Part shown: piece by piece, positions 3,589 through 64,000 of the stretch
How positions within the stretch are numbered: position 1 is the first letter of the stretch
Layout of the letters: each line of letters opens with the position of its first letter
IMG/VR virus record: IMGVR_UViG_3300033562_000225
Span: 1 to 64,000 of that record
Strand: one strand, 5' to 3'
Origin: a virus
Length of the DNA stretch: 64,000 bases
Notes under the pieces: generated by a model
Database searches by the model: none
What the model was told of the DNA's origin: nothing
The model's input: only the letters and a program-made list of their open reading frames with translations
Translations under genes and position numbers: made by a program

Positions 3589-3993
3589 TTACTTCTTACT
3601 GGTAGGAACCTCAACTACAGGCTCAGCAGTATTAAGCACTGGCTCGAGTTTTGGATCTACCATAGGGCTTACAGGAGCAGGGTTAAAAGGATTAAAAGCC
3701 TCAACCACGTCCTTAACTTCATCCGCCTCGGTAGTCTCTTCAGACAACTCTTCAGGCTCGTCCAATGGCTCTACTTCACCAGCCCTACTTGCCATAAGTA
3801 AAGCCTCAGCCTCATCGAATGCCTGGTAATCGGGTAACAAGTTCTCTGGGTTCAGATGGGTATAGTTACCATCGTAAGCCCTACCGAATACGGTGCTTTT
3901 ATGGCTACCCTCGAAGTTAGCCACAATTACTAATTGGATGCCTACTACATAGACAACTACTTGGGCGTTCTTGCCAACTCTAAAATGTTTCAT
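3589..3993 (-). CDS. hypothetical protein with acidic C-terminal half
   Basis: ORF track. The beta-rich N-terminal half is followed by an E/D/P-rich region. First gene of the minus-strand replication block as read from the left. An SSB-like role is only a guess. Confidence 0.55.
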   Translation of the reverse strand: MKHFRVGKNAQVVVYVVGIQLVIVANFEGSHKSTVFGRAYDGNYTHLNPENLLPDYQAFDEAEALLMASRAGEVEPLDEPEELSEETTEADEVKDVVEAFNPFNPAPVSPMVDPKLEPVLNTAEPVVEVPTSKK

Positions 3994-34749: not shown

Positions 34750-34780
34750 TTGTTTATATCATTTATTCAACTTATATTTG
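34750..34780 (+). promoter_or_regulatory. Bacteroidota-type promoter (aTTG-N20-TATATTTG)
   Basis: TTG at 34750-34752 and TATATTTG at 34773-34780, with a 20-nt spacer. Confidence 0.5.
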
Positions 34781-34786
34781 TAGGAC

Positions 34787-34862
34787 AATTCTCAGACATG
34801 TTCCCCCGAATTACTGAAAATTACTAAACCCCGATGTATCGTTACATCGGGGTTTTCTTTTT
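34787..34862 (+). ncRNA. candidate ~70-nt small RNA / mini-ORF transcript
   Basis: Bounded by the promoter at 34750-34780 and a strong terminator at 34829-34862. Contains only a 9-codon ORF (34798-34827, MFPRITENY). Confidence 0.35.
34829..34862 (+). terminator. intrinsic terminator
   Basis: 10-bp perfect stem ccccgatgta (34829-34838) / tacatcgggg (34843-34852), 4-nt loop, then TTTTCTTTTT. Confidence 0.8.
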
Positions 34863-34878
34863 AAATATTGTTAATTTA

Positions 34879-34910
34879 TTTGGTTTTACTGTTTACTTGA
34901 AGTATGTTTG
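34879..34910 (+). promoter_or_regulatory. Bacteroidota-type promoter (TTTG-N20-TATGTTTG) of the plus-strand operon
   Basis: TTTG at 34879-34882 and TATGTTTG at 34903-34910, with a 20-nt spacer. Confidence 0.6.
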
Positions 34911-34917
34911 CAGGACC

Positions 34918-35020
34918 GAGTACTAGCGGTATAAACGTATTGGGTTACCAAGTTTTTACTGGTGAACCTTGAAGGTCGATAGGATGGTCTAGTACCCATT
35001 CTTTCGACCTTTTAAATTTT
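34918..35020 (+). promoter_or_regulatory. structured 5' leader RNA, copy A (hairpin whose loop pairs with the transcript 5' end)
   Basis: Hairpin 34972-35011 (about 15 bp, 8-nt loop tctagtac) followed by TTAAATTTT. Loop nt 34989-34995 are complementary to 34920-34926. The architecture is duplicated at 63327-63411 with compensatory changes. Confidence 0.55.
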
Positions 35021-35042
35021 ATTCACTCTTCATTCAAACAAC

Positions 35043-35735
35043 ATGACTGAATTTTTAGCAAACACAAAAGAGACCATGTCCAGCATGGACATCGCAGAGT
35101 TAACAGGTAAGCAGCATTCACACGTGTTACGGGACATCAAAGTACTATTAGATCAAGGTGTAGCCGAATCCAATTTTGGACTGGGTTCATACTCAGACGC
35201 TAACGGGCAGTCTAGGACTATGTATAATCTTACTAAGAAGGGTTGTTTAATCCTTGCTTCTGGATACGATGCAGTCCTCCGAGAAAAGATTATTGACCGT
35301 TGGGAAGTGTTGGAGACTAAGGAGACTGCTGCCCTTCCTAGCACCTATTTGGATGCCCTTAAATCGCTTGTTATTGCCGAAGAGCAGAAAGCCTTACTAT
35401 CACTTGAACTAGAGCAGCAGCGGCCTAAGATTGAATTTTATGATACGGTGACCGGTTCTTCTGATACCATCGACATGGCTAGTGTAGCCAAGGTACTGGA
35501 TATGGGGATAGGCCGTAACAATCTATTTGAACTGTTACGTAAAGAAAATATCCTTAGACGTAACAATGAGCCTTACCAGACTTATGTTGATAGAGGGTTT
35601 TTCCGTCAGATAGAAAGTAAGTTTACAATGGCCGATGGCAGCATACGAATCAGCATAAAAACTGTAGTGTATCAGAAGGGTGTGAGTATGATTAGGGAAT
35701 TACTCACTAAGAAAGGTTTCAAACCCGCTAAATAA
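35043..35735 (+). CDS. Rha-family regulator with KilAC/antirepressor C-terminal domain
   Basis: The N-terminus MSSMDIAELTGKQHSHVLRDI is Rha-like. The C-terminus PKIEFYDTVTGSSDTIDMASVAKVLDMGIGRNNLFELLRKENILRRNNEPYQTYVDRGFF is KilAC/ANT-like. Confidence 0.7.
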   Translation: MTEFLANTKETMSSMDIAELTGKQHSHVLRDIKVLLDQGVAESNFGLGSYSDANGQSRTMYNLTKKGCLILASGYDAVLREKIIDRWEVLETKETAALPSTYLDALKSLVIAEEQKALLSLELEQQRPKIEFYDTVTGSSDTIDMASVAKVLDMGIGRNNLFELLRKENILRRNNEPYQTYVDRGFFRQIESKFTMADGSIRISIKTVVYQKGVSMIRELLTKKGFKPAK

Positions 35736-35806
35736 TTTTCACTTGGCTATTGTTTATTTGGTTACTTTGCCTATCTTTGTGGTATAAATAATTTCAAGCA
35801 GTATTA

Positions 35807-52597: not shown

Positions 52598-54321
52598 TGG
52601 CAACAACCCCTAACGTTCCCAAAGCACAGGCTTCCTTAAATAGTTTAATGGAGACTGTTAGACTAGGTAAGCCTATGGCTGAGGCTGCTGCTGAGGCCTA
52701 CATAGGACGATACCCCGACCCTACCCAACGCTCTACTCAAATAGGTTCTGTGTCTGGTAGTATGATCGGATCTGTTCCTATTTTCGGATCAGGTGCTCCT
52801 GTAGTCCCTGTGGAGAATATAGATAAAATGTATTTGCTACAGCAGCAGGCTAAACTTCGACAGAAAGCCGAGGATGATGCTGTACTGGGGGAGGTAAGAC
52901 CTTACTACGAACTAGCCACGGCTACAGCAAGTAAGAAGTTCAACGCCCTAGTCAATCTCAAAGTTCAAGGGGAATATACTAAGACTTATGCTTCCTTTGC
53001 AGGCCAGCCCAATGCCGAGATTAAAACAAGAAAGGCTATAGCGGCCAATCCTGAGTTTCATACGGCTGTGTCTGATACTACTGTTTTTCAGAAGCAATGG
53101 AACAATACTTATTCAGACGTATTAGTGTTCATGGCTATGGACCCTACAAACAAAGATGGTAAATCATCCGGATTTATAGCCCCCAGTATTCGTAAGAAAC
53201 TACAAGAGTTTATCAATACCCCTGAATCCTTGTTAGAAACTGCTGAGAAGACAGGTACGTTTGATTTAACTAGTGCCTCCAAAAGTTTAGACAATATCAG
53301 GGTACTTCTAAAGCCTATGCAGGATGTATCAGTGTCTGTAAAAACCTATGTGGACGAACTAGCGGCTACAGTTAATGAGACCTTACCTAGGAAGATACGA
53401 TCCACTAACCAAGCCGACTTGATGGCTGCTATAAAGACAGAGTATTATGAGGCTAAGCCGGAAGAATACGCTGAGCGGATCATGCAAGCTCATTATGCTG
53501 ACCTTCCCGAAGAGGACAAGGCCGCTACTAAGGCTATGATTACAAAAATGGTGGATGATCAGATAGCAACTAAGGTTACAAATACCGTTTCCACTATGAA
53601 CAACGGGCTATTGGCTAGGGCTCAGTGGGAATACGAGAAGAAAAAAGAAATGCCTATTGTTACCACTCAGCATATAGGATATAACATAACGGATGCTCAA
53701 GGTAGGCAACATGCTCGCAAGTTAACCGTGCCCGACTTTGTCCCTACCCAGCAGAAGCCTATACAGTATGCCTTCACTGGGGCCCAAACTTTATACGACC
53801 CTTCTACAGGTGATTATATTCTACCTGCTCAAGGGGTATCCACTCAGGCTAATATATCTGGGTTAGGTACATATAAAAAACGCTTTACTCGGAATGAAGG
53901 AGATATAGCCCTCACCACTTTTGGTGGAGGCCAGTCTTGGAGTAGACGTAGTAATCAGGTTAATGGCCACATGGCCTTTATGACTTTAGGTGTTCCTAAA
54001 GAGCAGCAAGTAAGAGAATCTACCCAAGTACCTACAGATGAGTTTATAAAAACACCTGGAGGCAAAAAACAGTTATTAAGAACTGAGACTAGTAGACAAC
54101 ACCAGACAATCAAGGCCCGAGTTTATAATGCAGCCACTAATAAATGGACTTCTGTAGACAATTACGATATCGAAGGTAAAACTTTCATAACTGATTCACG
54201 AAATGTTACAGGGGCTTTAGGACGGGCTGACACAGGCATAGCCGTATGGTTAGACTCCCAAGGAGGAGAGGTACCTCAATCTAAGCAGTTCAATTCATCA
54301 GAAGATTTCCCATCAAAATAA
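52597..54321 (+). CDS. virion internal protein candidate (574 aa)
   Basis: Called by position only. ATGA-type overlap at 52597. Confidence 0.45.
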   Translation: MATTPNVPKAQASLNSLMETVRLGKPMAEAAAEAYIGRYPDPTQRSTQIGSVSGSMIGSVPIFGSGAPVVPVENIDKMYLLQQQAKLRQKAEDDAVLGEVRPYYELATATASKKFNALVNLKVQGEYTKTYASFAGQPNAEIKTRKAIAANPEFHTAVSDTTVFQKQWNNTYSDVLVFMAMDPTNKDGKSSGFIAPSIRKKLQEFINTPESLLETAEKTGTFDLTSASKSLDNIRVLLKPMQDVSVSVKTYVDELAATVNETLPRKIRSTNQADLMAAIKTEYYEAKPEEYAERIMQAHYADLPEEDKAATKAMITKMVDDQIATKVTNTVSTMNNGLLARAQWEYEKKKEMPIVTTQHIGYNITDAQGRQHARKLTVPDFVPTQQKPIQYAFTGAQTLYDPSTGDYILPAQGVSTQANISGLGTYKKRFTRNEGDIALTTFGGGQSWSRRSNQVNGHMAFMTLGVPKEQQVRESTQVPTDEFIKTPGGKKQLLRTETSRQHQTIKARVYNAATNKWTSVDNYDIEGKTFITDSRNVTGALGRADTGIAVWLDSQGGEVPQSKQFNSSEDFPSK

Positions 54322-54337
54322 AAGAAAATAAAGAGCC

Positions 54338-57300
54338 ATGCCCATATTAAATAAATTATTTGGTGAGTATAAGAACTATCTAGGCCAAGGAGGTACTAAA
54401 GCAGCAGGGTTTCCTCAAACTTATGAGGAATACTCTAAAACTATGTCTTCAGGGGATTTGCAAGCCATATACAGGTATGCTAAGGAGAGATATACCAACG
54501 GAGTCCCTAAGACTTATGCTGACTTCCTATCCACAGTAGACGATGAATTACCTAAAGGAGTAAGCCAGCGTTTAACTCATCACGCTATACAAGCAGCTGG
54601 AAGACAATTAGGAGTTACTCCTAGGGAAACTCCTACAGCCAGACAGGCCACCGAGTCTCTAAAGACTCAAGGAGCCTTACTTACTGAAATGCCTGTAGAG
54701 CAAGATATAGAAACTCCTACAGGAGCACCTAGAGTAGATACTCAAATATCTACAGGATTGGTAGGAGTAGATCCAACAGGCCAACTACCTAAACCAACTA
54801 TAACTACAGGTTTAGATGATGTACTTCCCAAAGTAAGTGTTCCTGAAGAAGGTTCATTTGCTCCTGCACCTGCTAGCGTTCCGTCTCCTACGTTACGTCA
54901 GCCAACCGCTGCGGGTACTATGGTCACCCGTAAAGGTGAGCCCACTACGGCCGAAGATGGTGATCCTACTATCCTAGGAAGAGCGGGAGCAGCCACCGCT
55001 AGAGGAGGGGCCACTACTTTAGATGCAGTAGGAGGGTTCTTCGAGGTTATTACTAACCCTGCTTACTACGCTTCAGAAGCCGTTGAAAAGTACTCCGAAG
55101 TTGTAGGACCAGTGATAGAAGATTTAACCAGTGCTGTAGGTATAGGTGATACTGCTATAGGTAAGGCTATAGGTGTGGTGGCTAAAGGGGCCCCATCAGT
55201 AGCAAGCACATTTAAGAAAGAGGAATACGGTGGAGACCGTTACGCCTCCTTCACAGGTAATAGAGCCTATGTAGAGTCATTGGTTGGGACTCAGACTATG
55301 TCGGACCTATCCATAAAAAATCCTAACATCAAAGCGGCTCTAGTCGGAGTAGAGCAATTAAGCGGTATGGCTTTGGACTTGGCCCTACTGGTGGGTACTA
55401 GGAATCTGACCTCAGCCGAACCTCTTTTGACTAAATTTAGTTTGGGGGCTGAGGAGTTGTTCTATAAGTTTGCTCCTAAGGCTATAAGTACCGTTCCTAA
55501 GGCTGTAGGTAAAATATTTGGCGAAGCAGTCACCACCCCTACGGCCATACGCTCTCTACAAGTAGATTGGATTCAACCCTTCAAGGAGTTCGCTAAGTCT
55601 GACTTTGCAGTATTCTTAGGGGCCAAAGAATCGGCCCTAACTATGCAGGACTCAGATGCTAGTACTCTAGCATCCATAGGTGAAGGTATAAAAGCCTTCG
55701 GGATGGGATACTCCAATGGTTTATTCTTTGAGAAGATAGGGCTTACCCCTGTTAAACTAGCTTCATCTATTGCAGTCAAAACAGGCACACCTATTGCCGG
55801 ATTGGCTACAAACATGATAGGAGCAGGAGGAGTAGGATTCGGGGCTGATATGCTTTTACAAGCAGGTGAGCAAGTAGAGGCTGGGGAGAAGGTAGATCCT
55901 GATTACTATAGGTCGATAGCCGCCGGTGTAGCGTTTGCAGGAGGTACAGTTCTTCATGGTAGAAATATTATAGCCAATACTAGAGCGGGTATTCGTGCTA
56001 AGCAATGGAGCAATCTGATGGAGATGGAGAATAAAACCATAGACTACTGCTTAAATAACGCTTACGATGCACCTACTTTAAACGCTAAGATAGATGATAT
56101 GATGACTAAACGTGATGCTGTTGTTACACGGTTAGAGCGAACTATATCTACTAGTGGTAAGCCTGATGCTGCTTTAGAGAGGACTCTTATGGGTATAGAT
56201 GCCCAAACAAGTGCCTACCGTCAAGTATTACTTACACAGTCCTTTACTAAAGAAATAATACAGAACCCTGATAAGTTCCGTAACGAAATACTAGACAACC
56301 CTAATCTAAAGGCTGAGGTAAAAGACAAATTATGTCAACGCATCGACGCGATAGTACAAGAGTTCGATCCTATCAATGTTGAATCAAGACGTTTACAAAC
56401 TACTATCAACGATTGGCAGTTTGCTAAAACACAACTTGATCCTAATGATCCTATGACGGCTAAGAAATCAGGTATCTACGATAAGCAGATTGCTAAGGCT
56501 GAGGATAGGATGGCTGAACTCTCAGTAGCCCCAACCTACTACTACAAAGGGGAGTTCTATGATACTCACGGAGCTCTAATTGATGCCTTAAACAAGCGTT
56601 ACGTCGACGGTACTTCTTCGGAGGTTATTGTTCGTAACGATCCTCAAGCATCCAAGTTGGTTAATGAGTCTTTGAATCAGCTGCTAGATCGTAAGTTTAA
56701 CGAAGGAGTAAAAGTACAGCAGACACAAGAAATAGCCAAGGCTGAATCACAACCCGAGCGTGACCTAGCCATAACTCAAGCACAGGAACGTTTAAAACTT
56801 CCTACCGAACCTGAATTAATGGTAAGCGATCAAGCCGTGGCTGCCCTCGATCGGGCATTGGCTGGTGAGAGTGCCGATGTAGCCAAAGTTCAAAATGCTT
56901 CTGACCAACTCTATGCTGAGACTAAACGGTTGGAGAAAATGAAAGATGTTGATGGCAGACAGTACACCATCGAGCAAATAGAAACTGCCCAGCGTCAGGC
57001 TTTCGAAGATGTAGCATTTGCCGAGAACTACATCCAAGCAAAGAAGGCAGGAGAAACCATAGATGTTAAAGCCTTACGTGAAGAAGCCAAAGCAACGGCA
57101 GAAGACGCTATAAACGATATCAGAGAACGGAGACAGATTTTGCTGCCTGAATCGGTGAAGGCTAAGTTAAACGCCCCTAAACCCGAAACAGTTCCCGCAG
57201 AAACCGTAGCCAAAGTTGAACCAGTAAAACCTGTAGAAGATGCCAAAAGGGACGAAAGTACACTCGTGCGTCCAGAAGGTGAGCAAGTCCCACCCGAAGG

Positions 57301-60300
57301 GGTCAGCGATAGCAATTTGCCAAAGCCAGACAAAACAAAACTACTCGACAGGCCGACCGCTGAAAAAGAAGTAACCACTTGGGAAGAACTCCCATCATCT
57401 GATTATGTAGTGCTAGGTCCCGAAGGTAAGCCGATGGTGGCCGGAAAGGAACGTCGCGCGGCTATTGCCCGCGAAGAACGCAGCGTACGAGATAAAATGC
57501 TTTCTGACTACAGGCAGGCCAACGAAACCCGCTTGCAGGAGTATCGCGCCCAGGTTGCCGAGGAAAGACTAACCGAATGGAAAAAGGAGAACCCACAGGC
57601 TACCGAAACAGAAGTAGATACCCAGCGTAAAAAGATATCGGAAGAATCTGCTACCGCTACGCTGGCTCGCGCCGGTGCTGGGCTTACGGATGCCGACGTG
57701 CTACTCGGGGCTAGGCTGGCTACGTCCTACCTACGCGAAGGGGTAAAGAAAAGTGCTGACCTATTCAAAGAAGTGTCAGACAACTTACGCGGAGCCCTAG
57801 GACTCGAAATCACCAAGCAGGATTTTAAGCGCATGATGGCTACAGAGATTCCTGAGATTGGTCAGGCTCCTAAGGAAGCAGTTAAAACTTTATTCGGGGA
57901 GGCTGCCAAGTCTACTGTTAAGCGTCAAATCGAGGAAATAACTGGTATCAGAAGAAAGCCAGAAGTAGCCGTTTTAGACAATCTAAAAGAAGCAAGGGCT
58001 AGATATAAGGAACAGGAGAAAGTTGCTTCTGATGCCCTCAAAATAGGTGTTAAAGAGGGTAAACTAGAGATGAAGGAGGCTGCCTTCGATAAGCAAGGTT
58101 ACCGCGATCAACTCAACCAGTGGGTATCGGATAATAAGAAGGAAATCCAACAGGTAAATCCCGAGTTGACTCCGGCCATCTTACGAGCAGTAAACAACGT
58201 GAATAGTTGGTATACTCTTGATAGAGGATTAAAGCAAATCAAGAAGGCTATTTCAGATAAGACCTATGCAGATAACCTAATCACTCAAGACAAGTTATTC
58301 AAACAGGTTGAAAAGAATCTATCCCACGAAGGCAAGAGTAAGTTCGGCACCGCTCAAGGAGAAGTGGCCGACTTCCTACGTATCGATCCTAGTTCTTTAC
58401 CTACTGAACTTCGAGGGAAGTACGACACCTTGCTAGAGTCCATGGCAGCCAAGGCTACCGAAGTGCCTTATGACCCGTTCCAGCTAAAGCAATTCCTGGA
58501 TAACGCCAAAGTTCACGTCGACGAAGGTTATGCTGCTTATCGTGCTAAACTTGTAGATAAGGCTGTAGCCAAGGAACTAGCAGCAAAGGATGTGGATAAG
58601 AAAATGACTGCCAACGAGCGCGAGGTAGCGAAGAGAGACATTTACTCTACCTTAGCCAAAACGGCTATTGAAGGACTAAAATTTAAGAAGGGTAAAGTAA
58701 CCACAGGAGAAAAATTAATCAACGAGGTTACCCAATATTCTAAAGAGGAGTTGATGCGCTTGCCTTCTTCCACTCTATCGCGTCTCCCGTTTATGGTGGA
58801 TAAGATGGCTGTAGGTGTTGTGCCTTCTCGTCTATACCAAGATGTATTAAGACCTGTTAGATCATACAAGGCTGCTGATACTATTATGAAGGCTTTCGGT
58901 ATGAAATTACGTCCAGTACTAGAAGAATTGGATTCTAAGATTGGGGCTGTACGGGAGCAACTAGAAGTAGACATGCAGGGTAAAGGGCTAAGTTGGTTCC
59001 AGCAAATGAGGCTTAAAGATGCCTTACTCAACAAGCCTAGGTATCTACTTGACTCCATATTTAAAGGGGCTAAAGGATCGCGCACCTTCTATGATAATAT
59101 CCTATCTAATTCTGCTTTTAGTAAAACAAGAGCCGAGGCCGATGCAACCCGTGCCAAAATAAGTGCAACTAATTTATGGGGTAAAGCATACAGAGCAAGA
59201 GAAAAAGTAGGAGATAACCGGTTCGATAGTGGTTTTATTTCTACACTATACTCCAAAGCATTAGAATATGAATCCAACAAAGGATTAAAAGGGGCCCATT
59301 CCCCCCAAGATTATTTCTCTCAGTTGGTAGACTACCGTAAGTCTTATGGAGTATATACCGAGCAGAATACCATCCGTATGCGTGAACTGTGGAACAAGAT
59401 GCAGGATGCTAACGGAGACGTGACTGCTGCTTCCATTAAGAAGTTAATGCTTCCCGAAGAAACCGCTGCTGTAGACTACATGCGTAAATGGTACGATAGT
59501 GAGGGTATAGAAAAAACTAGGGAAGCCGAGGTAATGTACCGAGGTGGTGCTTTAGATACTTACGAAAACTATAGTCATAACTTCGTAGTTAATGGCAACA
59601 ACATGGTCGATCCTGCTGCTTTCGTAGAGCAGATATTCGGCGGAACTCCTGCATCCAATATGTCGGTACGTAGTGCTACCACGCATGCCCGAAGTGGACA
59701 AACCGGAGTAATAAGTATCGATCCTATTGCTACCTTCAATCGTGCAGTAGACTCTACCTATTACGACTATCACATGACTCCGGCCATCCAGGAGGCTTTA
59801 GGAGCCTTTAAGGTAATGTCGGATATGGCTACTGATAAATCCTTCCGGGATTCCCTGCTAATGATAGAGAATGCCTATAAAGGGGATATTACTATAGCCT
59901 TTGAGAATACCATGAGGCAGACTACCAATATGGATAAGATAATGAATGCTATGGGTGGGGCGTTCTACTCCGGGGCGTTATCTTCAATACGTCGTATCCC
60001 CCAAGAATTTTTATCTAACTTATCATCAGCCATAATTTATGACCCTGTTTCTTTTTATGAAGGGTCAAGAGCCATTATGGATCATCAGACTGCTAAAGCA
60101 GCCGAATCTACTTCTATGAGTTCTGGTTATGAGCCTTTATTTGACTTTGCTGGTGTAACCAATAGGTTCCGTAGGAATGTAGAGGATGCTCAACGTTTGT
60201 TCAACGATACTAACATGGCCGGTAGTACTATTAGAACAGGCAAATGGGATAGGACCATAGATACTATAACCAATAACAAGGTTAAAAATACCTTCGATAC

Positions 60301-61369
60301 TTTTAACAAATCAGTTATATCTCTGTCGGATGACGTTGTAGGTACTAGATTCTTTGTAGGCAAGTTCCGACGTGAGTATGAAAAACTTGCTGGTGAGAAA
60401 TTCGATAATGAAAAATTCAATACTGATGAAAATTATCGTTTTGATAATGAGCAAAATATTAAGCAAGCAGCAGCCGAAGCCTCTTTCCATACTAACCTAA
60501 TGACCAATACAGCTAACTCCCTTGAAGGCATTCAAGCATTAAAGGTTAGGGGCACCTCCGGAGCCCAAGTATTCCGGGATATAAACAATACCCTCTCCGG
60601 ATTCTCCAGGCACGAAGCGGCTGTTATGACCACCTCCCTACGGTCATTAACTGGTAATGGGTCGTTGTCTGCTCAACAGGCCTGGGCTCTATTTGCCTCG
60701 GTTACCACTAGGAATATTGTTTACAATACCGTGCTAGAGTTTGGGGCTCGTGCAGCATGGGCCGGAGTAGATGATGATTATTCTGTATCAAATGCTGTTT
60801 ATGACGTGTTTGGCAAAGACCAATTAGCCAGGCAAGTTGCAGGGGCTTGGCTACAGATTGGGATAGGGTCACGAGGGAACTTACTTCGTATGCCTCTACA
60901 GTTTGGGTTAAGCAAAGCCAACCAGTATGTAACTGAGCATTGGCTAGGTCAAGAGTTCGATCCTGAAAAACATAAATTAGGTATGGAAGGCCCTGACATA
61001 GTTAACGCTACTAGCAGCCTATACAATGCGGCTAGACAATTAGGTCCTTATCAAATGCCAGTTAACCTAGCCATAGAAGGGGCCAAACTAACTAAGACTC
61101 TTGCCACCTCTTCTGATGAGCAAGCAGAAAACGAGAAGTGGTCGGCTCTAAACTCTATGATTTGGTCTACACAAAAGACTTTACTTCCTCTGCCTTTCCA
61201 ACGTGATATGGAAGGCGTTATGAAGCAAAGCATGGATGCTATGGAGGCTACAGGAGACCTTAAAGGTATATTTGAGGAGGGTAGAATATCTAAAGCATTT
61301 GTTGGAGCCAAGAGAACTGAACAGATTCAGCAGCAGATGGAGGAAGCCAAACTTCGTAATAAGGAGTAG
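54338..61369 (+). CDS. giant virion protein (2343 aa), ejection/internal core protein candidate
   Basis: An uninterrupted 7-kb ORF. Gly/Ala-rich hydrophobic stretches lie near aa 330-560 and a long K/E/A-rich charged region in the middle. It is the last structural gene before the lysis cassette. Confidence 0.6.
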   Translation: MPILNKLFGEYKNYLGQGGTKAAGFPQTYEEYSKTMSSGDLQAIYRYAKERYTNGVPKTYADFLSTVDDELPKGVSQRLTHHAIQAAGRQLGVTPRETPTARQATESLKTQGALLTEMPVEQDIETPTGAPRVDTQISTGLVGVDPTGQLPKPTITTGLDDVLPKVSVPEEGSFAPAPASVPSPTLRQPTAAGTMVTRKGEPTTAEDGDPTILGRAGAATARGGATTLDAVGGFFEVITNPAYYASEAVEKYSEVVGPVIEDLTSAVGIGDTAIGKAIGVVAKGAPSVASTFKKEEYGGDRYASFTGNRAYVESLVGTQTMSDLSIKNPNIKAALVGVEQLSGMALDLALLVGTRNLTSAEPLLTKFSLGAEELFYKFAPKAISTVPKAVGKIFGEAVTTPTAIRSLQVDWIQPFKEFAKSDFAVFLGAKESALTMQDSDASTLASIGEGIKAFGMGYSNGLFFEKIGLTPVKLASSIAVKTGTPIAGLATNMIGAGGVGFGADMLLQAGEQVEAGEKVDPDYYRSIAAGVAFAGGTVLHGRNIIANTRAGIRAKQWSNLMEMENKTIDYCLNNAYDAPTLNAKIDDMMTKRDAVVTRLERTISTSGKPDAALERTLMGIDAQTSAYRQVLLTQSFTKEIIQNPDKFRNEILDNPNLKAEVKDKLCQRIDAIVQEFDPINVESRRLQTTINDWQFAKTQLDPNDPMTAKKSGIYDKQIAKAEDRMAELSVAPTYYYKGEFYDTHGALIDALNKRYVDGTSSEVIVRNDPQASKLVNESLNQLLDRKFNEGVKVQQTQEIAKAESQPERDLAITQAQERLKLPTEPELMVSDQAVAALDRALAGESADVAKVQNASDQLYAETKRLEKMKDVDGRQYTIEQIETAQRQAFEDVAFAENYIQAKKAGETIDVKALREEAKATAEDAINDIRERRQILLPESVKAKLNAPKPETVPAETVAKVEPVKPVEDAKRDESTLVRPEGEQVPPEGVSDSNLPKPDKTKLLDRPTAEKEVTTWEELPSSDYVVLGPEGKPMVAGKERRAAIAREERSVRDKMLSDYRQANETRLQEYRAQVAEERLTEWKKENPQATETEVDTQRKKISEESATATLARAGAGLTDADVLLGARLATSYLREGVKKSADLFKEVSDNLRGALGLEITKQDFKRMMATEIPEIGQAPKEAVKTLFGEAAKSTVKRQIEEITGIRRKPEVAVLDNLKEARARYKEQEKVASDALKIGVKEGKLEMKEAAFDKQGYRDQLNQWVSDNKKEIQQVNPELTPAILRAVNNVNSWYTLDRGLKQIKKAISDKTYADNLITQDKLFKQVEKNLSHEGKSKFGTAQGEVADFLRIDPSSLPTELRGKYDTLLESMAAKATEVPYDPFQLKQFLDNAKVHVDEGYAAYRAKLVDKAVAKELAAKDVDKKMTANEREVAKRDIYSTLAKTAIEGLKFKKGKVTTGEKLINEVTQYSKEELMRLPSSTLSRLPFMVDKMAVGVVPSRLYQDVLRPVRSYKAADTIMKAFGMKLRPVLEELDSKIGAVREQLEVDMQGKGLSWFQQMRLKDALLNKPRYLLDSIFKGAKGSRTFYDNILSNSAFSKTRAEADATRAKISATNLWGKAYRAREKVGDNRFDSGFISTLYSKALEYESNKGLKGAHSPQDYFSQLVDYRKSYGVYTEQNTIRMRELWNKMQDANGDVTAASIKKLMLPEETAAVDYMRKWYDSEGIEKTREAEVMYRGGALDTYENYSHNFVVNGNNMVDPAAFVEQIFGGTPASNMSVRSATTHARSGQTGVISIDPIATFNRAVDSTYYDYHMTPAIQEALGAFKVMSDMATDKSFRDSLLMIENAYKGDITIAFENTMRQTTNMDKIMNAMGGAFYSGALSSIRRIPQEFLSNLSSAIIYDPVSFYEGSRAIMDHQTAKAAESTSMSSGYEPLFDFAGVTNRFRRNVEDAQRLFNDTNMAGSTIRTGKWDRTIDTITNNKVKNTFDTFNKSVISLSDDVVGTRFFVGKFRREYEKLAGEKFDNEKFNTDENYRFDNEQNIKQAAAEASFHTNLMTNTANSLEGIQALKVRGTSGAQVFRDINNTLSGFSRHEAAVMTTSLRSLTGNGSLSAQQAWALFASVTTRNIVYNTVLEFGARAAWAGVDDDYSVSNAVYDVFGKDQLARQVAGAWLQIGIGSRGNLLRMPLQFGLSKANQYVTEHWLGQEFDPEKHKLGMEGPDIVNATSSLYNAARQLGPYQMPVNLAIEGAKLTKTLATSSDEQAENEKWSALNSMIWSTQKTLLPLPFQRDMEGVMKQSMDAMEATGDLKGIFEEGRISKAFVGAKRTEQIQQQMEEAKLRNKE

Positions 61370-61423
61370 TTGTAATTCTTCATAAAAATAGTTAATTTAG
61401 GGGAAACAAAACAACCCTATTGT

Positions 61424-61843
61424 ATGGACTTTATTTTACACACAGTCGCTAAGAAGCCTACCTACACTATAGGTAGGCTATTCTTGTTGAAAGATGGGAA
61501 AGAGGAGTATTTATGTGACACGCTAGAGGACACCGTTAGAGAACTGACAAAGTTGTCTGATAAAGTACCAGGAAAAACGGCTATCCCTAGAGGGAAGTAC
61601 TCGTTATCCTTGACCTATAGTAACCGGTTTAAACGGTTCCTACCTCTTATCGAAGACGTTCCTTTTTTCTCAGGTATTCGAATACATGCAGGTAACTCCG
61701 ATGTGGATACGGAAGGTTGCCTATTGGTAGGAAAAAACAAAACCGTAGGAACTGTATCCAAATCCGTTTACACTCTGGAGTGTGTCATACTCCCGCTGTT
61801 TAGGACGTATAGTTCTGAGAAACACTCAATACTAATATGTTAA
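61424..61843 (+). CDS. DUF5675-like protein, candidate cell-wall hydrolase (YkuD-like His...Gly-Cys motif)
   Basis: TIGRLFL...CDTLED...GKTAIPRGKY...GIRIHAGNSDVDTEGCLLVG. The family assignment is from memory. It lies directly upstream of holin-like genes. Confidence 0.5.
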   Translation: MDFILHTVAKKPTYTIGRLFLLKDGKEEYLCDTLEDTVRELTKLSDKVPGKTAIPRGKYSLSLTYSNRFKRFLPLIEDVPFFSGIRIHAGNSDVDTEGCLLVGKNKTVGTVSKSVYTLECVILPLFRTYSSEKHSILIC

Positions 61844-62172
61844 ACCGACTAGAACCCCAAACCCTACAACTCCTACTCGTGATTACTTCCCTGATCGTAT
61901 TCATTTTGGGTACCCTGTTTGCTATAATTGGGTACTTCATCAAGCAGTTTATCAAGACTGTTAACTCCTCTATTAGGGCTATTACTGATTCTCTCAGAGA
62001 ACTCACAGCAGCCGTACAGTCTGTTCAGCTTGTTACACGGGAGTGGAATACGTCTAACCTGTCTGAGCACAACGAGTTTAAAAAGACCCTAACAGAGCAT
62101 TCAGAAAAACTGTCCGACCATGCTGTTATTCTCGGCCGGCATAGTGAAATACTTAAATCTGCAAAATCATGA
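61837..62172 (+). CDS. holin-like/lysis-associated membrane protein (1 TM + coiled coil)
   Basis: The TM segment is LLLVITSLIVFILGTLFAIIGYF. Overlaps both neighbours. Confidence 0.45.
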   Translation: MLNRLEPQTLQLLLVITSLIVFILGTLFAIIGYFIKQFIKTVNSSIRAITDSLRELTAAVQSVQLVTREWNTSNLSEHNEFKKTLTEHSEKLSDHAVILGRHSEILKSAKS

Positions 62173-62384
62173 AAGAGTTAATTCGTAGATGGAAAGCGTC
62201 TACACCCAAGTTTTGGAAAAAGGTAATCCATTTTATGGTAACCGTGGCCACTGTCTGCACCGCTGGGCTAGCCTTAACACAGGTTCCTGGCTTCGAGGTT
62301 GACCCTGTTGTTACTAAATGCTTATCCTACGTACTACTTGCCAGCGTCCTATGTGGAGCACAAGCTAAACTTACCGAAGCGTGA
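62169..62384 (+). CDS. holin candidate (2 TM, 71 aa)
   Basis: Two hydrophobic segments (VIHFMVTVATVCTAGLAL, CLSYVLLASVLCGA). 4-nt overlaps on both sides. Confidence 0.45.
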   Translation: MKELIRRWKASTPKFWKKVIHFMVTVATVCTAGLALTQVPGFEVDPVVTKCLSYVLLASVLCGAQAKLTEA

Positions 62385-63001
62385 GAAAGTATCTTATAAT
62401 TTTACTAGGCCTATTCCTTATTGGGGTAGGCCTACTCTTCTCCGATTGGTTGGCCCAACGGAAAGAGGTTTCTCGCCTTACGATTAACCTTTCACAAGTC
62501 GAGGTGAAGTATAAAACCACCACCGGTTTAGTTGCTTCCCAGACGGTAACCCTAGAGGCTACTCAGAAAGAGTTGAAGAGGGTGTCTAAAAAGTCTTCTG
62601 AACAACTCAGCGACTATGACAAGAAGTTGAAGACTGCTTATGACGATATAAAGGCTTTGAAGTTGAAACCGCCCCAAGTAATCACCTACACTAAGATAGT
62701 AACAGTTTCTAACGATTCAGGTTTAGTGTCTAGGGATTCAATAGTCAAATTCCCTTTACTCATTAATCGTAAACATTACAGGATCGAACTGTACCGTGAT
62801 AAAGGCACCATACAGCACCGACATTCCTACTGGAACAATACAAGCGTAGTGCTGAGTAGGGAAAGGTATTTTAAGGACGGTACGCGTATCAAACATGCGA
62901 AATGGTACTTCTGGAAGTCTTGGAAACATACCACTACAACCGTATGTGATGACTCAAGTGCAGTATCCAATATTTCAGTAAGTGTTAACTTTAGTCAATA
63001 A
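62381..63001 (+). CDS. N-terminally anchored periplasmic protein, spanin-like candidate
   Basis: The signal anchor is YLIILLGLFLIGVGLLF. Last gene of the lysis cluster, followed by a strong terminator. Confidence 0.4.
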   Translation: MRKYLIILLGLFLIGVGLLFSDWLAQRKEVSRLTINLSQVEVKYKTTTGLVASQTVTLEATQKELKRVSKKSSEQLSDYDKKLKTAYDDIKALKLKPPQVITYTKIVTVSNDSGLVSRDSIVKFPLLINRKHYRIELYRDKGTIQHRHSYWNNTSVVLSRERYFKDGTRIKHAKWYFWKSWKHTTTTVCDDSSAVSNISVSVNFSQ

Positions 63002-63042
63002 AACCCATAATATTTGTGTGGTAAATAATTTATACTTAGATT

Positions 63043-63071
63043 TGCCCTTACAATAACGTAAGGGCATTTTT
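63043..63071 (+). terminator. intrinsic terminator ending the late operon
   Basis: 9-bp stem tgcccttac (63043-63051) / gtaagggca (63058-63066), 6-nt loop, then TTTTT. Confidence 0.8.
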
Positions 63072-63084
63072 AATTAGATAAGAT

Positions 63085-63267
63085 TTGATTATGGCATATG
63101 CAGCAGTAGACCAAGATGGGACAGAATGTTTATATAACTATGAGCCTTATAGAACCGATAATGGTTGGAATGAAGAGGAGGGTTGTGTGGAACTTCCTAA
63201 AGGAGTCATAGAAAAACTCATAGGCAGGAAAATTACTTGGGACGACGAACCAGTAGAACTCAAGTAA
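63085..63267 (+). CDS. hypothetical protein
   Basis: ORF track. The track start is a TTG. ATG at 63091 (MAYAAVDQ) is more likely. Confidence 0.4.
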   Translation: MIMAYAAVDQDGTECLYNYEPYRTDNGWNEEEGCVELPKGVIEKLIGRKITWDDEPVELK

Positions 63268-63287
63268 AGGTAAAATACGTTAAAGGA

Positions 63288-63319
63288 TTTGTACGTGTCA
63301 GAACATTATAATATGTTTG
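63288..63319 (+). promoter_or_regulatory. Bacteroidota-type promoter (TTTG-N20-TATGTTTG)
   Basis: TTTG at 63288-63291 and TATGTTTG at 63312-63319, with a 20-nt spacer. The -7 octamer is identical to the one at 34903-34910. Confidence 0.6.
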
Positions 63320-63326
63320 TACAGCA

Positions 63327-63411
63327 AGGTGAGAGTTGCACAAAAGTATTGGTGTAAAAACCTTAAAGGTCGTTTGGAGTGTCTCTCACCACTTCACTCG
63401 ACCTTTTCAAT
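63327..63411 (+). promoter_or_regulatory. structured 5' leader RNA, copy B
   Basis: Hairpin 63365-63406 (8 bp outer stem, 2x2 internal loop, 7 bp inner stem, 8-nt loop tctctcac) followed by TTTTCAATTT. The loop plus one nt (63383-63390) is complementary to 63328-63335. Confidence 0.55.
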
Positions 63412-63441
63412 TTATTGGACTAGATTATTAAACTCATTGTC

Positions 63442-63747
63442 ATGGAGAATTTTGCTACGATTAGGATGGAACTAGACTTACAAGCACAACGTGTTATTCA
63501 TCAATACATGGTGGATAATGCTAAAATATCAGAAGAAGTAACCAGAGGTATTAAAGAGGCCTTTGATTCTTTTGATATTGCTGAGGCTATTAGAAAAGAA
63601 GTTTCCCACTGCTTACAAGAAGCTGTACGTGGGTCAGGTAATTGGAGTACCTTACGGGCCACTATACAGAAAAAAATGGATATAGTGGTTGAAGAGCATA
63701 TTGAGAAAACCTTAGAGTCTCTTAAAGAGTCTTTAAAGACTCTTTAA
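63442..63747 (+). CDS. hypothetical protein
   Basis: ORF track. First gene after leader copy B. Confidence 0.5.
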   Translation: MENFATIRMELDLQAQRVIHQYMVDNAKISEEVTRGIKEAFDSFDIAEAIRKEVSHCLQEAVRGSGNWSTLRATIQKKMDIVVEEHIEKTLESLKESLKTL

Positions 63748-63758
63748 AGTAGGCCTTA

Positions 63759-64000
63759 TGACAAACGAATACCAAAAAGCACTACTCAACCTTCTCCTAA
63801 CGGATATATCCCATAAGAGGGATATACTCCACGTGCCTAGTAGCCTATTCCCCTCCCCTACTAATCAACAGGTGATGGACACGCTAAAAGCCTACTTGGA
63901 GAAGTTTGACCAGTTACCTCACGAAGCCAACCTATCGGAGTTCTGGCGATCAATAGTGAGTACAGTAGAGAAGTCGGTTGATCCCACATACACCCAACTA
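63759..64000 (+). CDS. hypothetical protein, 5' fragment (runs off window)
   Basis: The reading frame from ATG 63759 (MTNEYQKALLNLLLTDISHKRD...) stays open to the window end. A DnaB-N-terminal-like impression is too weak to call. Confidence 0.4.

Follow-up and report, generated by a model that had tools for sequence, protein, structure and literature searches.

The stretch of DNA considered here (the window) comprises positions 1 to 64,000 of the IMG/VR virus record IMGVR_UViG_3300033562_000225. It carries minus-strand genes from ~3.6 to 34.7 kb and plus-strand genes from 35 kb on, the latter including genes for a large terminase, a portal, capsid-like and ring proteins, a 2343-amino-acid (aa) protein and a DUF5675 protein. 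At two places on the plus strand, 34879-35022 (copy A) and 63288-63416 (copy B), a promoter is followed by a leader with a long, terminator-like hairpin whose apical loop is complementary to a segment near the predicted 5' end of the transcript. Copy A stands before an Rha + KilAC antirepressor gene (230 aa, 35043-35735, plus strand), and copy B before a 101-aa gene without known family (63442-63747, plus strand). We conclude that A and B belong to a family of structured 5' leader RNAs, ~95-110 nt long and so far uncatalogued, which occurs in Bacteroidota phages, and we have very little doubt that the underlying RNA structure is real and conserved. To our knowledge, gene regulation in Bacteroidota phages is almost unexplored, and we know of neither Shine-Dalgarno-led initiation nor Hfq in their hosts.

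Both copies begin with a predicted promoter that matches the Bacteroidota sigma-A consensus in full, with a -7 box TAnnTTTG and a TTTG element ~19-20 nt upstream. The promoter of copy A (34879-34910) consists of the -33 element TTTG (34879-34882), a 20-nt spacer and the -7 box TATGTTTG (34903-34910). The segment GTACTAG (34920-34926), which forms the 5' strand of a pseudoknot, follows 9 nt past this box, within the first bases of the predicted transcript. Next come a single-stranded box, AAACGTATTG (34933-34942), recognised from alignments and corresponding to the family consensus AAAGAUAUU, and a small helix, P2 (GGTT...AACC, 34943-34968), lengthened in this copy by an 18-nt insertion (GGUUACCA / UGGU-G-AACC, -9.5 kcal/mol). 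The terminator-like hairpin, P3, spans 34971-35012, with 17-nt arms, one U-U mismatch and a folding energy of -21.9 kcal/mol. Its inner 40 nt (34972-35011) read AAGGTCGATAGGATGG, then the loop TCTAGTAC (34988-34995), then CCATTCTTTCGACCTT; the last 7 bases of the loop, CTAGTAC (34989-34995), are the 3' strand of the pseudoknot, and the resulting duplex has an energy of -8.6 kcal/mol. The tail TTAAATTTTAT (35012-35022) makes up CUUUUAAAUUUU together with the U residues of the stem itself, and the ATG of the Rha + KilAC gene at 35043 comes after TTTTAAATTTT.

Copy B follows the same plan. Its promoter (63288-63319) has TTTG at 63288-63291, a 20-nt spacer and the same -7 box, TATGTTTG, at 63312-63319. 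The 5' strand, (G)GTGAGAG, lies at 63328-63335, where GTGAGAG occupies 63329-63335 and G63328 extends the pairing to 8 nt. The conserved box CAAAAGTATT (63341-63350) and P2 (GGTG-TAAA-AACC, 63351-63362) lead to P3 (63365-63406), which contains a 40-nt hairpin at 63366-63405 and folds with -19.6 kcal/mol. Its loop, TCTCTCAC (63382-63389), is the 3' strand of the pseudoknot (duplex -13.2 kcal/mol). The tail is TTCAATTTATT (63406-63416), and the longer stretch after the hairpin reads TTTTCAATTT.

These promoters, 40-nt hairpins and complementarities between loop and 5' segment had been pointed out in an earlier, sequence-only reading of this DNA, and all of them are present. Pairwise alignment likewise bears out its description of the differences between A and B, three in the loop pairing and three in the inner stem, every one of which is compensated. 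The outer-stem motif AAGGTCG-N-CGACCTT occurs twice in the window, in A and B, and in none of 100 shuffles; both leaders fold more stably than their shuffled sequences (z = -3.5 for A and -2.7 for B). The leader holds no tRNA, and a leader peptide was rejected because no conserved open reading frame (ORF) was found within it.

A third copy, C, came from the closest relative phage, which has a terminase 72% identical to that of the window phage. The route to it was the homologue of the 2343-aa protein, which led to the tail and replication region of that relative; there, at the position equivalent to that of B, lies a leader (L022:16201-16304) that scores 72 bits (E = 5e-12). The outer stem of C is changed on both sides relative to A and B (GGT/ACC to GCC/GGC). 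A pattern made from the positions invariant among A, B and C, together with covariance models, recovered a further 11 copies from IMG/VR contigs, for a total of 14: two in L030 (L030a and L030b) and one each in L032, L033, L035, L036, L037, L063, L067, L069 and L070. Membership was established by exact-pattern scans of public collections and is biased to the sequence-conserved core. Apart from a few related pairs, nucleotide similarity between the contigs is confined to the element itself. For L063 and L030, the nearest phages are Flavobacteriia phages (of Tenacibaculum, Riemerella, Cellulophaga and Flavobacterium). Two candidate features noted in the window were dropped, since neither is kept in C or the other copies: a palindrome, ACCTTNAAGGT, around the hairpin base, and a helix in which AAGGU, close to the 5' end of copy B, would pair with the ACCUU that precedes P3.

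Other searches came back empty. Megablast of the A and B regions against GenBank phages gave no match, and distant blastn of the family members against the same phages gave chance matches only. The exact outer-stem pattern of A and B found nothing in IMG/VR, and in metagenomes only unrelated hairpin terminators (L012-L017). These last are terminators made up of inverted repeats of GGTCGTCTGAA and have no relation to the phage element; they resemble what we take to be the inverted repeats of Neisseria DNA uptake sequences, and they indicate that short stem patterns can arise convergently by chance. In bacterial genome contigs all 23 pattern matches were chance-like, with those rescanned scoring below 27 bits and one (L050) checked directly. 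The two-copy covariance model found nothing in 11 loci with distant large-terminase relatives (39-48% identical), and relatives sought through the 445-aa protein and the helicase encoded downstream of B were either absent or too distant. The closest relative has no copy at the position equivalent to that of A, and no copy is present in the sequence examined from four further terminase relatives (in metagenome and Logan sequencing-run assemblies) or from three cultured Flavobacteriia phages, Tenacibaculum JQ, Riemerella PJN03 and Cellulophaga phi10:1. The family is not confined to this genome, and its distribution is sporadic and cassette-like, given that other relatives of the window phage and the three cultured phages lack a copy in the sequence examined.

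All copies share the same order of parts: a -7 box, 6-13 nt, the 5' strand (7-9 nt), a short linker, the box AAAGAUAUU, P2, 2 nt, P3 and the tail CUUUUAAAUUU. The -7 box reads TAnnTTTG in 13 of the 14 copies and AATATTTG in L030b, and a -33 TTTG lies 19-20 nt upstream of it in A, B and at least four other copies, whose flanks were read by eye. The gap of 6-13 nt between -7 box and pseudoknot strand holds in all compact copies, which probably puts the 5' strand at the predicted 5' terminus of the transcript or no more than a few nucleotides away. The A-rich, conserved box lies with P2 between the two strands of the pseudoknot. P2 is GGUU, a 3-4-nt loop and AACC. P3, a hairpin of 15-18 bp, has arms of 16-18 nt, a base rich in G+C and, in mid-stem, pyrimidine mismatches; its apical loop has 7-8 nt (11 nt in L030b). 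Folding energies are -16.5 to -24.7 kcal/mol for P3 in the 11 copies tested and -8.6 to -14.3 kcal/mol for the pseudoknot duplex. The start codon follows 7-16 nt past the P3 stem in 12 of the 14 copies, and 30-35 nt past it in A and B.

The strongest evidence for the structure is the way in which the loop and the 5' strand change together. Among the 14 copies there are 10 independent loop/5'-segment sequence pairs, and every independent copy differs. Written as 5' strand/loop, they are GTACTAG/CTAGTAC in A, GTGAGAG/CTCTCAC in B, GGTGAGA/TCTCACC in C, GTAGAGG/CCTCTAC in L032, L035, L069 and L070, CTGCGAGA/TCTCGCAG in L036, GTACGAG/CTCGTAC in L033, CTGGTAGA/TCTACCAG in L037, TTACCGG/CCGGTAA in L030a, CTACGAC/GTCGTAG in L030b, TTGACGGA/TCCGTCAA in L063 and CCGTCAG/CTGACGG in L067. 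Cognate complementarity runs to 7-9 nt in 12 of 12 copies tested. None of 128 non-cognate combinations exceeds 6 nt, and of 24000 trials with shuffled 5' regions, 183 (0.76%) attain 7 nt. A manual structural alignment of 12 sequences (A8; N-padded, with the P2 insertion of copy A removed) was fitted to the structure and is to that extent biased in its favour. In this alignment 93.4% of cells are paired, versus 34.7-57.1% when the partners are slid by 1-3 columns, and none of 500 shuffles reaches any of the observed measures. Each of the seven core positions of the pseudoknot is paired in 12 of 12 sequences and shows changes on both sides, and 12 of the 16 pairs of P3 do likewise. The loop of P3 thus has a pairing partner outside its own hairpin, and that pairing is backed by covariation. 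RNAalifold predicts P2 and P3 from the same alignment. P2 is GGUU/AACC in 11 of the 12 aligned copies and, being nearly invariant, shows no covariation in A8; the 18-nt insertion in copy A nonetheless extends its helix, and one divergent leader (see below) has UGGCA-GAAA-UGCCA in its place.

Which molecule folds? The strands of the pseudoknot and those of P3 are inverted repeats in the DNA, as would be expected of an operator pair or a cruciform, and the similarity between copies might in principle be due to chance. Against a DNA-level element stand the pseudoknot sequences, which differ in every independent copy so that no single protein site can be conserved, and the G-U pairs, which fill 25 cells when the plus strand is read and 0 when the minus strand is. 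In addition, the insertion in copy A keeps the helix and not the spacing, and the orientation to promoter and ORF is fixed. The strand bias of the G-U pairs and the fixed orientation mean that it is the transcript of the plus strand that folds. An operator or cruciform in the DNA was accordingly rejected on the differing paired sequences and the strand-specific G-U pairs, and we regard chance or a DNA-level origin as extremely improbable. The sequence-only reading had proposed a plus-strand RNA in which the loop of a hairpin is paired to the transcript's 5' end, duplicated with compensatory changes, and had named covariation in homologous phages as a check; the 10 independent pseudoknot sequences strongly back the proposal, with the loop/5'-segment pairing kept through changes on both sides.

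Structured, cis-acting leader RNAs are as such a known kind. It is the topology of this one that is previously undescribed and its gene association that is unusual. Rfam 15 gave no match at gathering thresholds over the whole window. With E up to 10 and both copies scanned, the best score over copy A was NsiR8, at 14.5 bits versus a threshold of 61, and the best in the scanned stretch was RefA9, at 26.2 bits versus 49, over the terminator 34826-34855 just upstream of A. These far sub-threshold scores agree with the sequence-only reading, which knew of no described family with this architecture. The low-scoring matches (E up to 10) included no riboswitch, no ribozyme and no phage or Bacteroidota cis-regulatory leader family. 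In the literature no description of the leader was found; it could sit unnamed among the 10,006 candidate viral structured RNAs of a published catalogue (PMC10690425).

Could the leader be a sensor, that is, a riboswitch-like or protein-binding tertiary fold that sets termination or translation (or, as a less likely version, a self-cleaving ribozyme)? A specific three-dimensional fold is suggested by some 25 unpaired nucleotides that hardly vary and by the pyrimidine-pyrimidine internal loop that is conserved in P3, and this fold takes in the expression hairpin in the manner of the cobalamin riboswitch kissing loop. In that riboswitch (L5-L13), as would be the case here, the regulatory hairpin is stabilised through a Watson-Crick tertiary contact made with its apical loop; there, however, the contact is loop-loop and belongs to a large ligand-binding aptamer, whereas the partner in the leader is a linear 5' end. 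No mutually exclusive alternative structure was seen, the downstream genes suggest no ligand, and neither a riboswitch nor a ribozyme of Rfam matches. We consider a sensor improbable.

The first downstream gene encodes a nuclease in 8 of the 14 copies (HNH/NUMOD4, HNH, GIY-YIG/NUMOD3 or endonuclease VII; in L069 the ORF leaves the end of the locus, and the assignment goes by the similarity of its start alone), a KilAC antirepressor in 2 (A, and C with AntA + KilAC), a Rad52-like protein in 1 and an unknown protein in 3 (B, L063 and L067). Replication operons are headed by B, C, L030b and two divergent leaders. The cassettes in L032, L035 and L070 point against the neighbouring genes. Between L032 and L035 the leader is 84% identical and the nuclease ORF is swapped, with homology resuming exactly at the end of the ORF.

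In the window, copy A lies behind a strong terminator (34826-34855) and heads the Rha/KilAC gene only, as the structural operon that follows has a -7 box of its own, TATCTTTG, at 35773-35780. In the closest relative neither copy A nor the Rha gene is found at that place, and so A plus Rha/KilAC looks like an inserted cassette. A terminator (63043-63066) and a small ORF precede copy B, which leads the 101-aa ORF, whose product has no homologue except itself, and then a replication module that encodes a P-loop protein of 445 aa, a helicase and DNA polymerase A. Of the two plus-strand units that the sequence-only reading had the leaders heading, that of B holds as a replication module, and that of A is instead the apparently inserted Rha/KilAC cassette. 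The 64-kb window has five full promoter matches (TTTG-N17-22-TAnnTTTG), two of which are those of A and B, and no further full-consensus promoter occurs in the ~10 kb of replication genes downstream of B.

The reading that we tentatively favour, while holding it to be possible rather than probable, is that the leader controls transcription termination close to the promoter. A host-type consensus promoter (TTTG-N19-20-TAnnTTTG), presumed to be strong and constitutive, would start the transcript, and the leader would then act in cis on elongation near that promoter, with P3 and the U tract (CUUUUAAA) serving as a signal of the intrinsic-terminator type. Conserved U-U and C-U mismatches weaken P3 in its upper stem. 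Nearly all of the loop is paired, with 0-1 nt as linker, and for that reason the helix of the pseudoknot must be stacked on P3, where, as in a kissing complex, it would nucleate and brace the mismatch-interrupted upper stem. Helix stacking of this kind is known from the kissing-loop complexes TAR-TAR* and RNA I-RNA II. Polymerase would thereby be throttled or gated at P3 ahead of genes that may do harm or whose timing matters (those for homing nucleases, antirepressors, recombination and replication), and read-through would be either leaky or aided by a factor, probably host-derived.

P3 has the features of an intrinsic terminator hairpin, with a GGGC/GACC base followed by UUUU, in a tract that is short and broken by AAA, and it resembles the gene-end terminators of the genome itself at 34826-34855 and 63043-63066. 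It also suits gating that A and B hold two of the window's full-consensus promoters and that nuclease, antirepressor, Rad52-like and replication genes lie downstream. A parallel is offered by the pyrG leader attenuator of B. subtilis, where a promoter, a short leader, a hairpin with a U tract and the gene follow one another and the 5' end of the transcript pairs with the terminator. In pyrG, however, reiterative G addition lengthens the 5' end, whose pairing with the 5' arm blocks termination, whereas here the segment is templated, and its pairing with the loop sets up no competition with the stem. Free-standing phage nuclease genes with their own promoter and expression-limiting RNA structures are likewise known, in T4 I-TevI and Aeh1 mobE; those are idiosyncratic hairpins of T-even phages that sequester the ribosome-binding site, while the leader is one conserved, pseudoknotted family in unrelated Bacteroidota phages and stands before antirepressor and replication genes as well.

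Several observations weigh against termination control. No antiterminator fold competing with P3 was seen, either by eye or in the minimum-free-energy and centroid folds of the tested copies, all of which contain P3, and the leader therefore lacks the switch of a classical attenuator or riboswitch platform. The U tract, UUUU followed by AAAUUU, is short, and AAA at the base of the stem is paired to three of these U residues. Since no other full promoter lies between B and the ~10 kb of replication genes, P3 cannot be an efficient unconditional terminator. The occurrence of the leader in unrelated phages and its absence from the examined parts of other relatives make a dedicated phage antiterminator protein unlikely, and none was identified. 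Finally, the short, fixed distance to the start codon and the tucked-in 5' end suit a post-transcriptional role equally well.

Such a role is the substance of a second reading, the main rival, in which the leader is a module of the 5' untranslated region (UTR): the 5' end would be hidden from 5'-end-dependent decay and P3 would insulate the initiation zone, an A/U-rich, Shine-Dalgarno-less landing zone (UUUUAAAUUU...AUG), so that a cassette is expressed stably in any context, with negligible termination at P3. It is known that 5'-terminal base-pairing stabilises bacterial mRNAs, as in the ompA and T7 gene 10 leaders, and that translation in Bacteroidota initiates on unstructured A/U-rich leaders. 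The constant placement of the 5' strand 6-13 nt past the -7 box and of the start codon 7-16 nt past the stem in 12 of 14 copies fits this well, as do the presence of the leader before cassette-like genes in many contexts, some antisense to their neighbours, its retention while the nuclease ORF was exchanged (L032 versus L035), and the read-through of B that the replication genes require. It is difficult to see, however, why a simple 5' hairpin would not suffice, and the long-range pseudoknot, the conserved box, P2, the pyrimidine mismatches of P3 and the invariant UUUU after a G+C-rich stem are left unexplained, as is the start codon 30-35 nt away in A and B. On balance we judge this 5' UTR module somewhat unlikely. 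The T4 gene 32 operator is also a phage leader with a 5' pseudoknot followed by a UUAAA-like, A/U-rich stretch up to the initiation codon. [quoted passage not shown]

A third reading takes its cue from phage HK022, whose putL and putR lie just downstream of promoters, as the leader does. Like the leader, they are cis-acting structured RNAs past early promoters, in two diverged copies that keep their pairing, at the head of delayed-early-type (replication and recombination) genes and in need of no dedicated protein. By analogy, the leader RNA would stay on its RNA polymerase and render it resistant to downstream terminators without any phage protein. The position directly past strong promoters at the head of replication/recombination-type genes, the two copies per genome with compensatory changes, and the portability across unrelated phages, which argues for a mechanism without a dedicated factor, all speak for such an antiterminator. 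Yet many copies front one small gene, where processive antitermination has no obvious use, and no downstream terminators requiring suppression were identified. In structure, too, the two systems part: the put RNAs of enterobacterial phages are two adjacent stem-loops (~70 nt) without pseudoknot, 5'-end pairing, terminator-like hairpin or U tract, unlike the pseudoknot, P2 and P3 of the leader, and there is no similarity in sequence or model. We therefore hold a put-like antiterminator to be as improbable as a sensor. The conserved linear box and small hairpin of the leader partly recall lambda nut, where a boxB hairpin with a conserved loop, read by N protein, comes after a linear boxA; in the leader, however, the loop of P2 is variable (UAA, UUUU, GUUU, GUAA, UGAU, AUA, AUU), and no N-like protein was identified.

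Perhaps, instead, the terminated leader of ~95 nt is itself the product, a stable small RNA protected at both ends, with downstream expression as a by-product of read-through. The promoter, the compact fold and the terminator-like 3' end are in keeping with this, and an ORF-less promoter-to-terminator unit lies immediately upstream of A (34773-34862). Against it, a same-strand ORF always follows 7-35 nt downstream, and the sole variable segments pair in cis, leaving no apparent surface for a target in trans; we rate it as very improbable.

Model-free scanning extended the family in another direction. The scan sought a terminator-like hairpin behind a TAnnTTTG box with a loop complementary to a segment 15-80 nt upstream, and it recovered the known copies together with three leaders that the covariance model had missed. 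One (L032:13457-13576) precedes a second NUMOD4-HNH gene. Another is encoded by the minus strand of L035 (reverse-complement coordinates 3824-3922) and is followed by ORFs of 70 and 236 aa and by a DnaB-like helicase, the last named from its N-terminal sequence alone. The third (L063:600-765) has a two-part pseudoknot, TTGACAC/GTGTCAA plus CCTGAGA/TCTCAGG, and lies at the same position as L030b in the related contig, ahead of an HNH-like gene and a primase-helicase. The divergent leaders sit behind a TATATTTG box, and it is one of them that has the different P2. As leaders of the same design escape the covariance model, the family is probably larger than its sequence-similar core.

The most far-reaching reading would be a self-contained, factor-independent RNA device of a new class, in which the pseudoknot between 5' end and terminator loop directly gates or reprograms RNA polymerase or senses a cellular signal, which travels as a portable controller of expression with nuclease and antirepressor cassettes from one unrelated Bacteroidota phage to another and of which the divergent variants would represent a much larger superfamily. 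We think this unlikely. Under any reading, the leader is a well-defined candidate for Rfam and for mutational testing of its 7 base pairs: a strongly covarying fold of unusual topology that fastens the 5' end to the apex of a terminator-like hairpin and, in unrelated phages, stands before genes that are selfish or sensitive to dosage as well as before replication modules. Were termination control to prove true, the leader would be an attenuator of new design and would give Bacteroidota synthetic biology a regulatory part that is compact and portable; stabilisation and insulation of the mRNA would show how mobile cassettes secure expression in any genomic context.

Some further observations concern the window phage and its surroundings. 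Positions 53442-64000 differ from a 78.8-kb JGI metagenome contig (L018) at 3 positions over a 10.6-kb overlap, so that the window evidently stems from this contig, and the Logan assembly SRR21758068 holds copies of A and B identical to those of the window, which suggests that this phage has been sampled repeatedly and almost without variation. The 2343-aa ORF (54338-61369) has only one homologue, in the relative phage (60% identity), among 5.8 billion clustered proteins, and no family match on record. At 63013-63044 lies a full consensus promoter, TTTG-N20-TAGATTTG, whose -7 box abuts the terminator hairpin 63043-63066. A transcript from this promoter would start inside the 5' arm of the hairpin and so escape the terminator that halts upstream transcription, an arrangement that resembles the late-promoter trick of T4 I-TevI.

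Around copy A, the unit at 34773-34862 consists of the -7 box TATATTTG, ~45 nt and the strong terminator AAACCCCGATGTA-tcgt-TACATCGGGGTTT followed by TCTTTTT, with no ORF between, and is a candidate for a small RNA of ~75 nt. An upstream CCCCCGA could compete for the 3' arm of its terminator. A promoter-plus-terminator unit is also found at the same place in the relative phage (L020:8614-8695). The promoter-like box at 35773-35780 is a -7-only element directly before the first small gene of the structural operon, with an equivalent in the relative, TACATTTG (L020:8828-8835); lacking a -33 element, it could depend on an activator, as late promoters often do. In distant relatives, the divergent intergenic region upstream of the structural operon, which is where A lies in the window phage, holds short direct repeats (gcttgtccgac three times, or of the tactgagt type) and long structured hairpins (L003:4290-4325 and L006:5008-5035).

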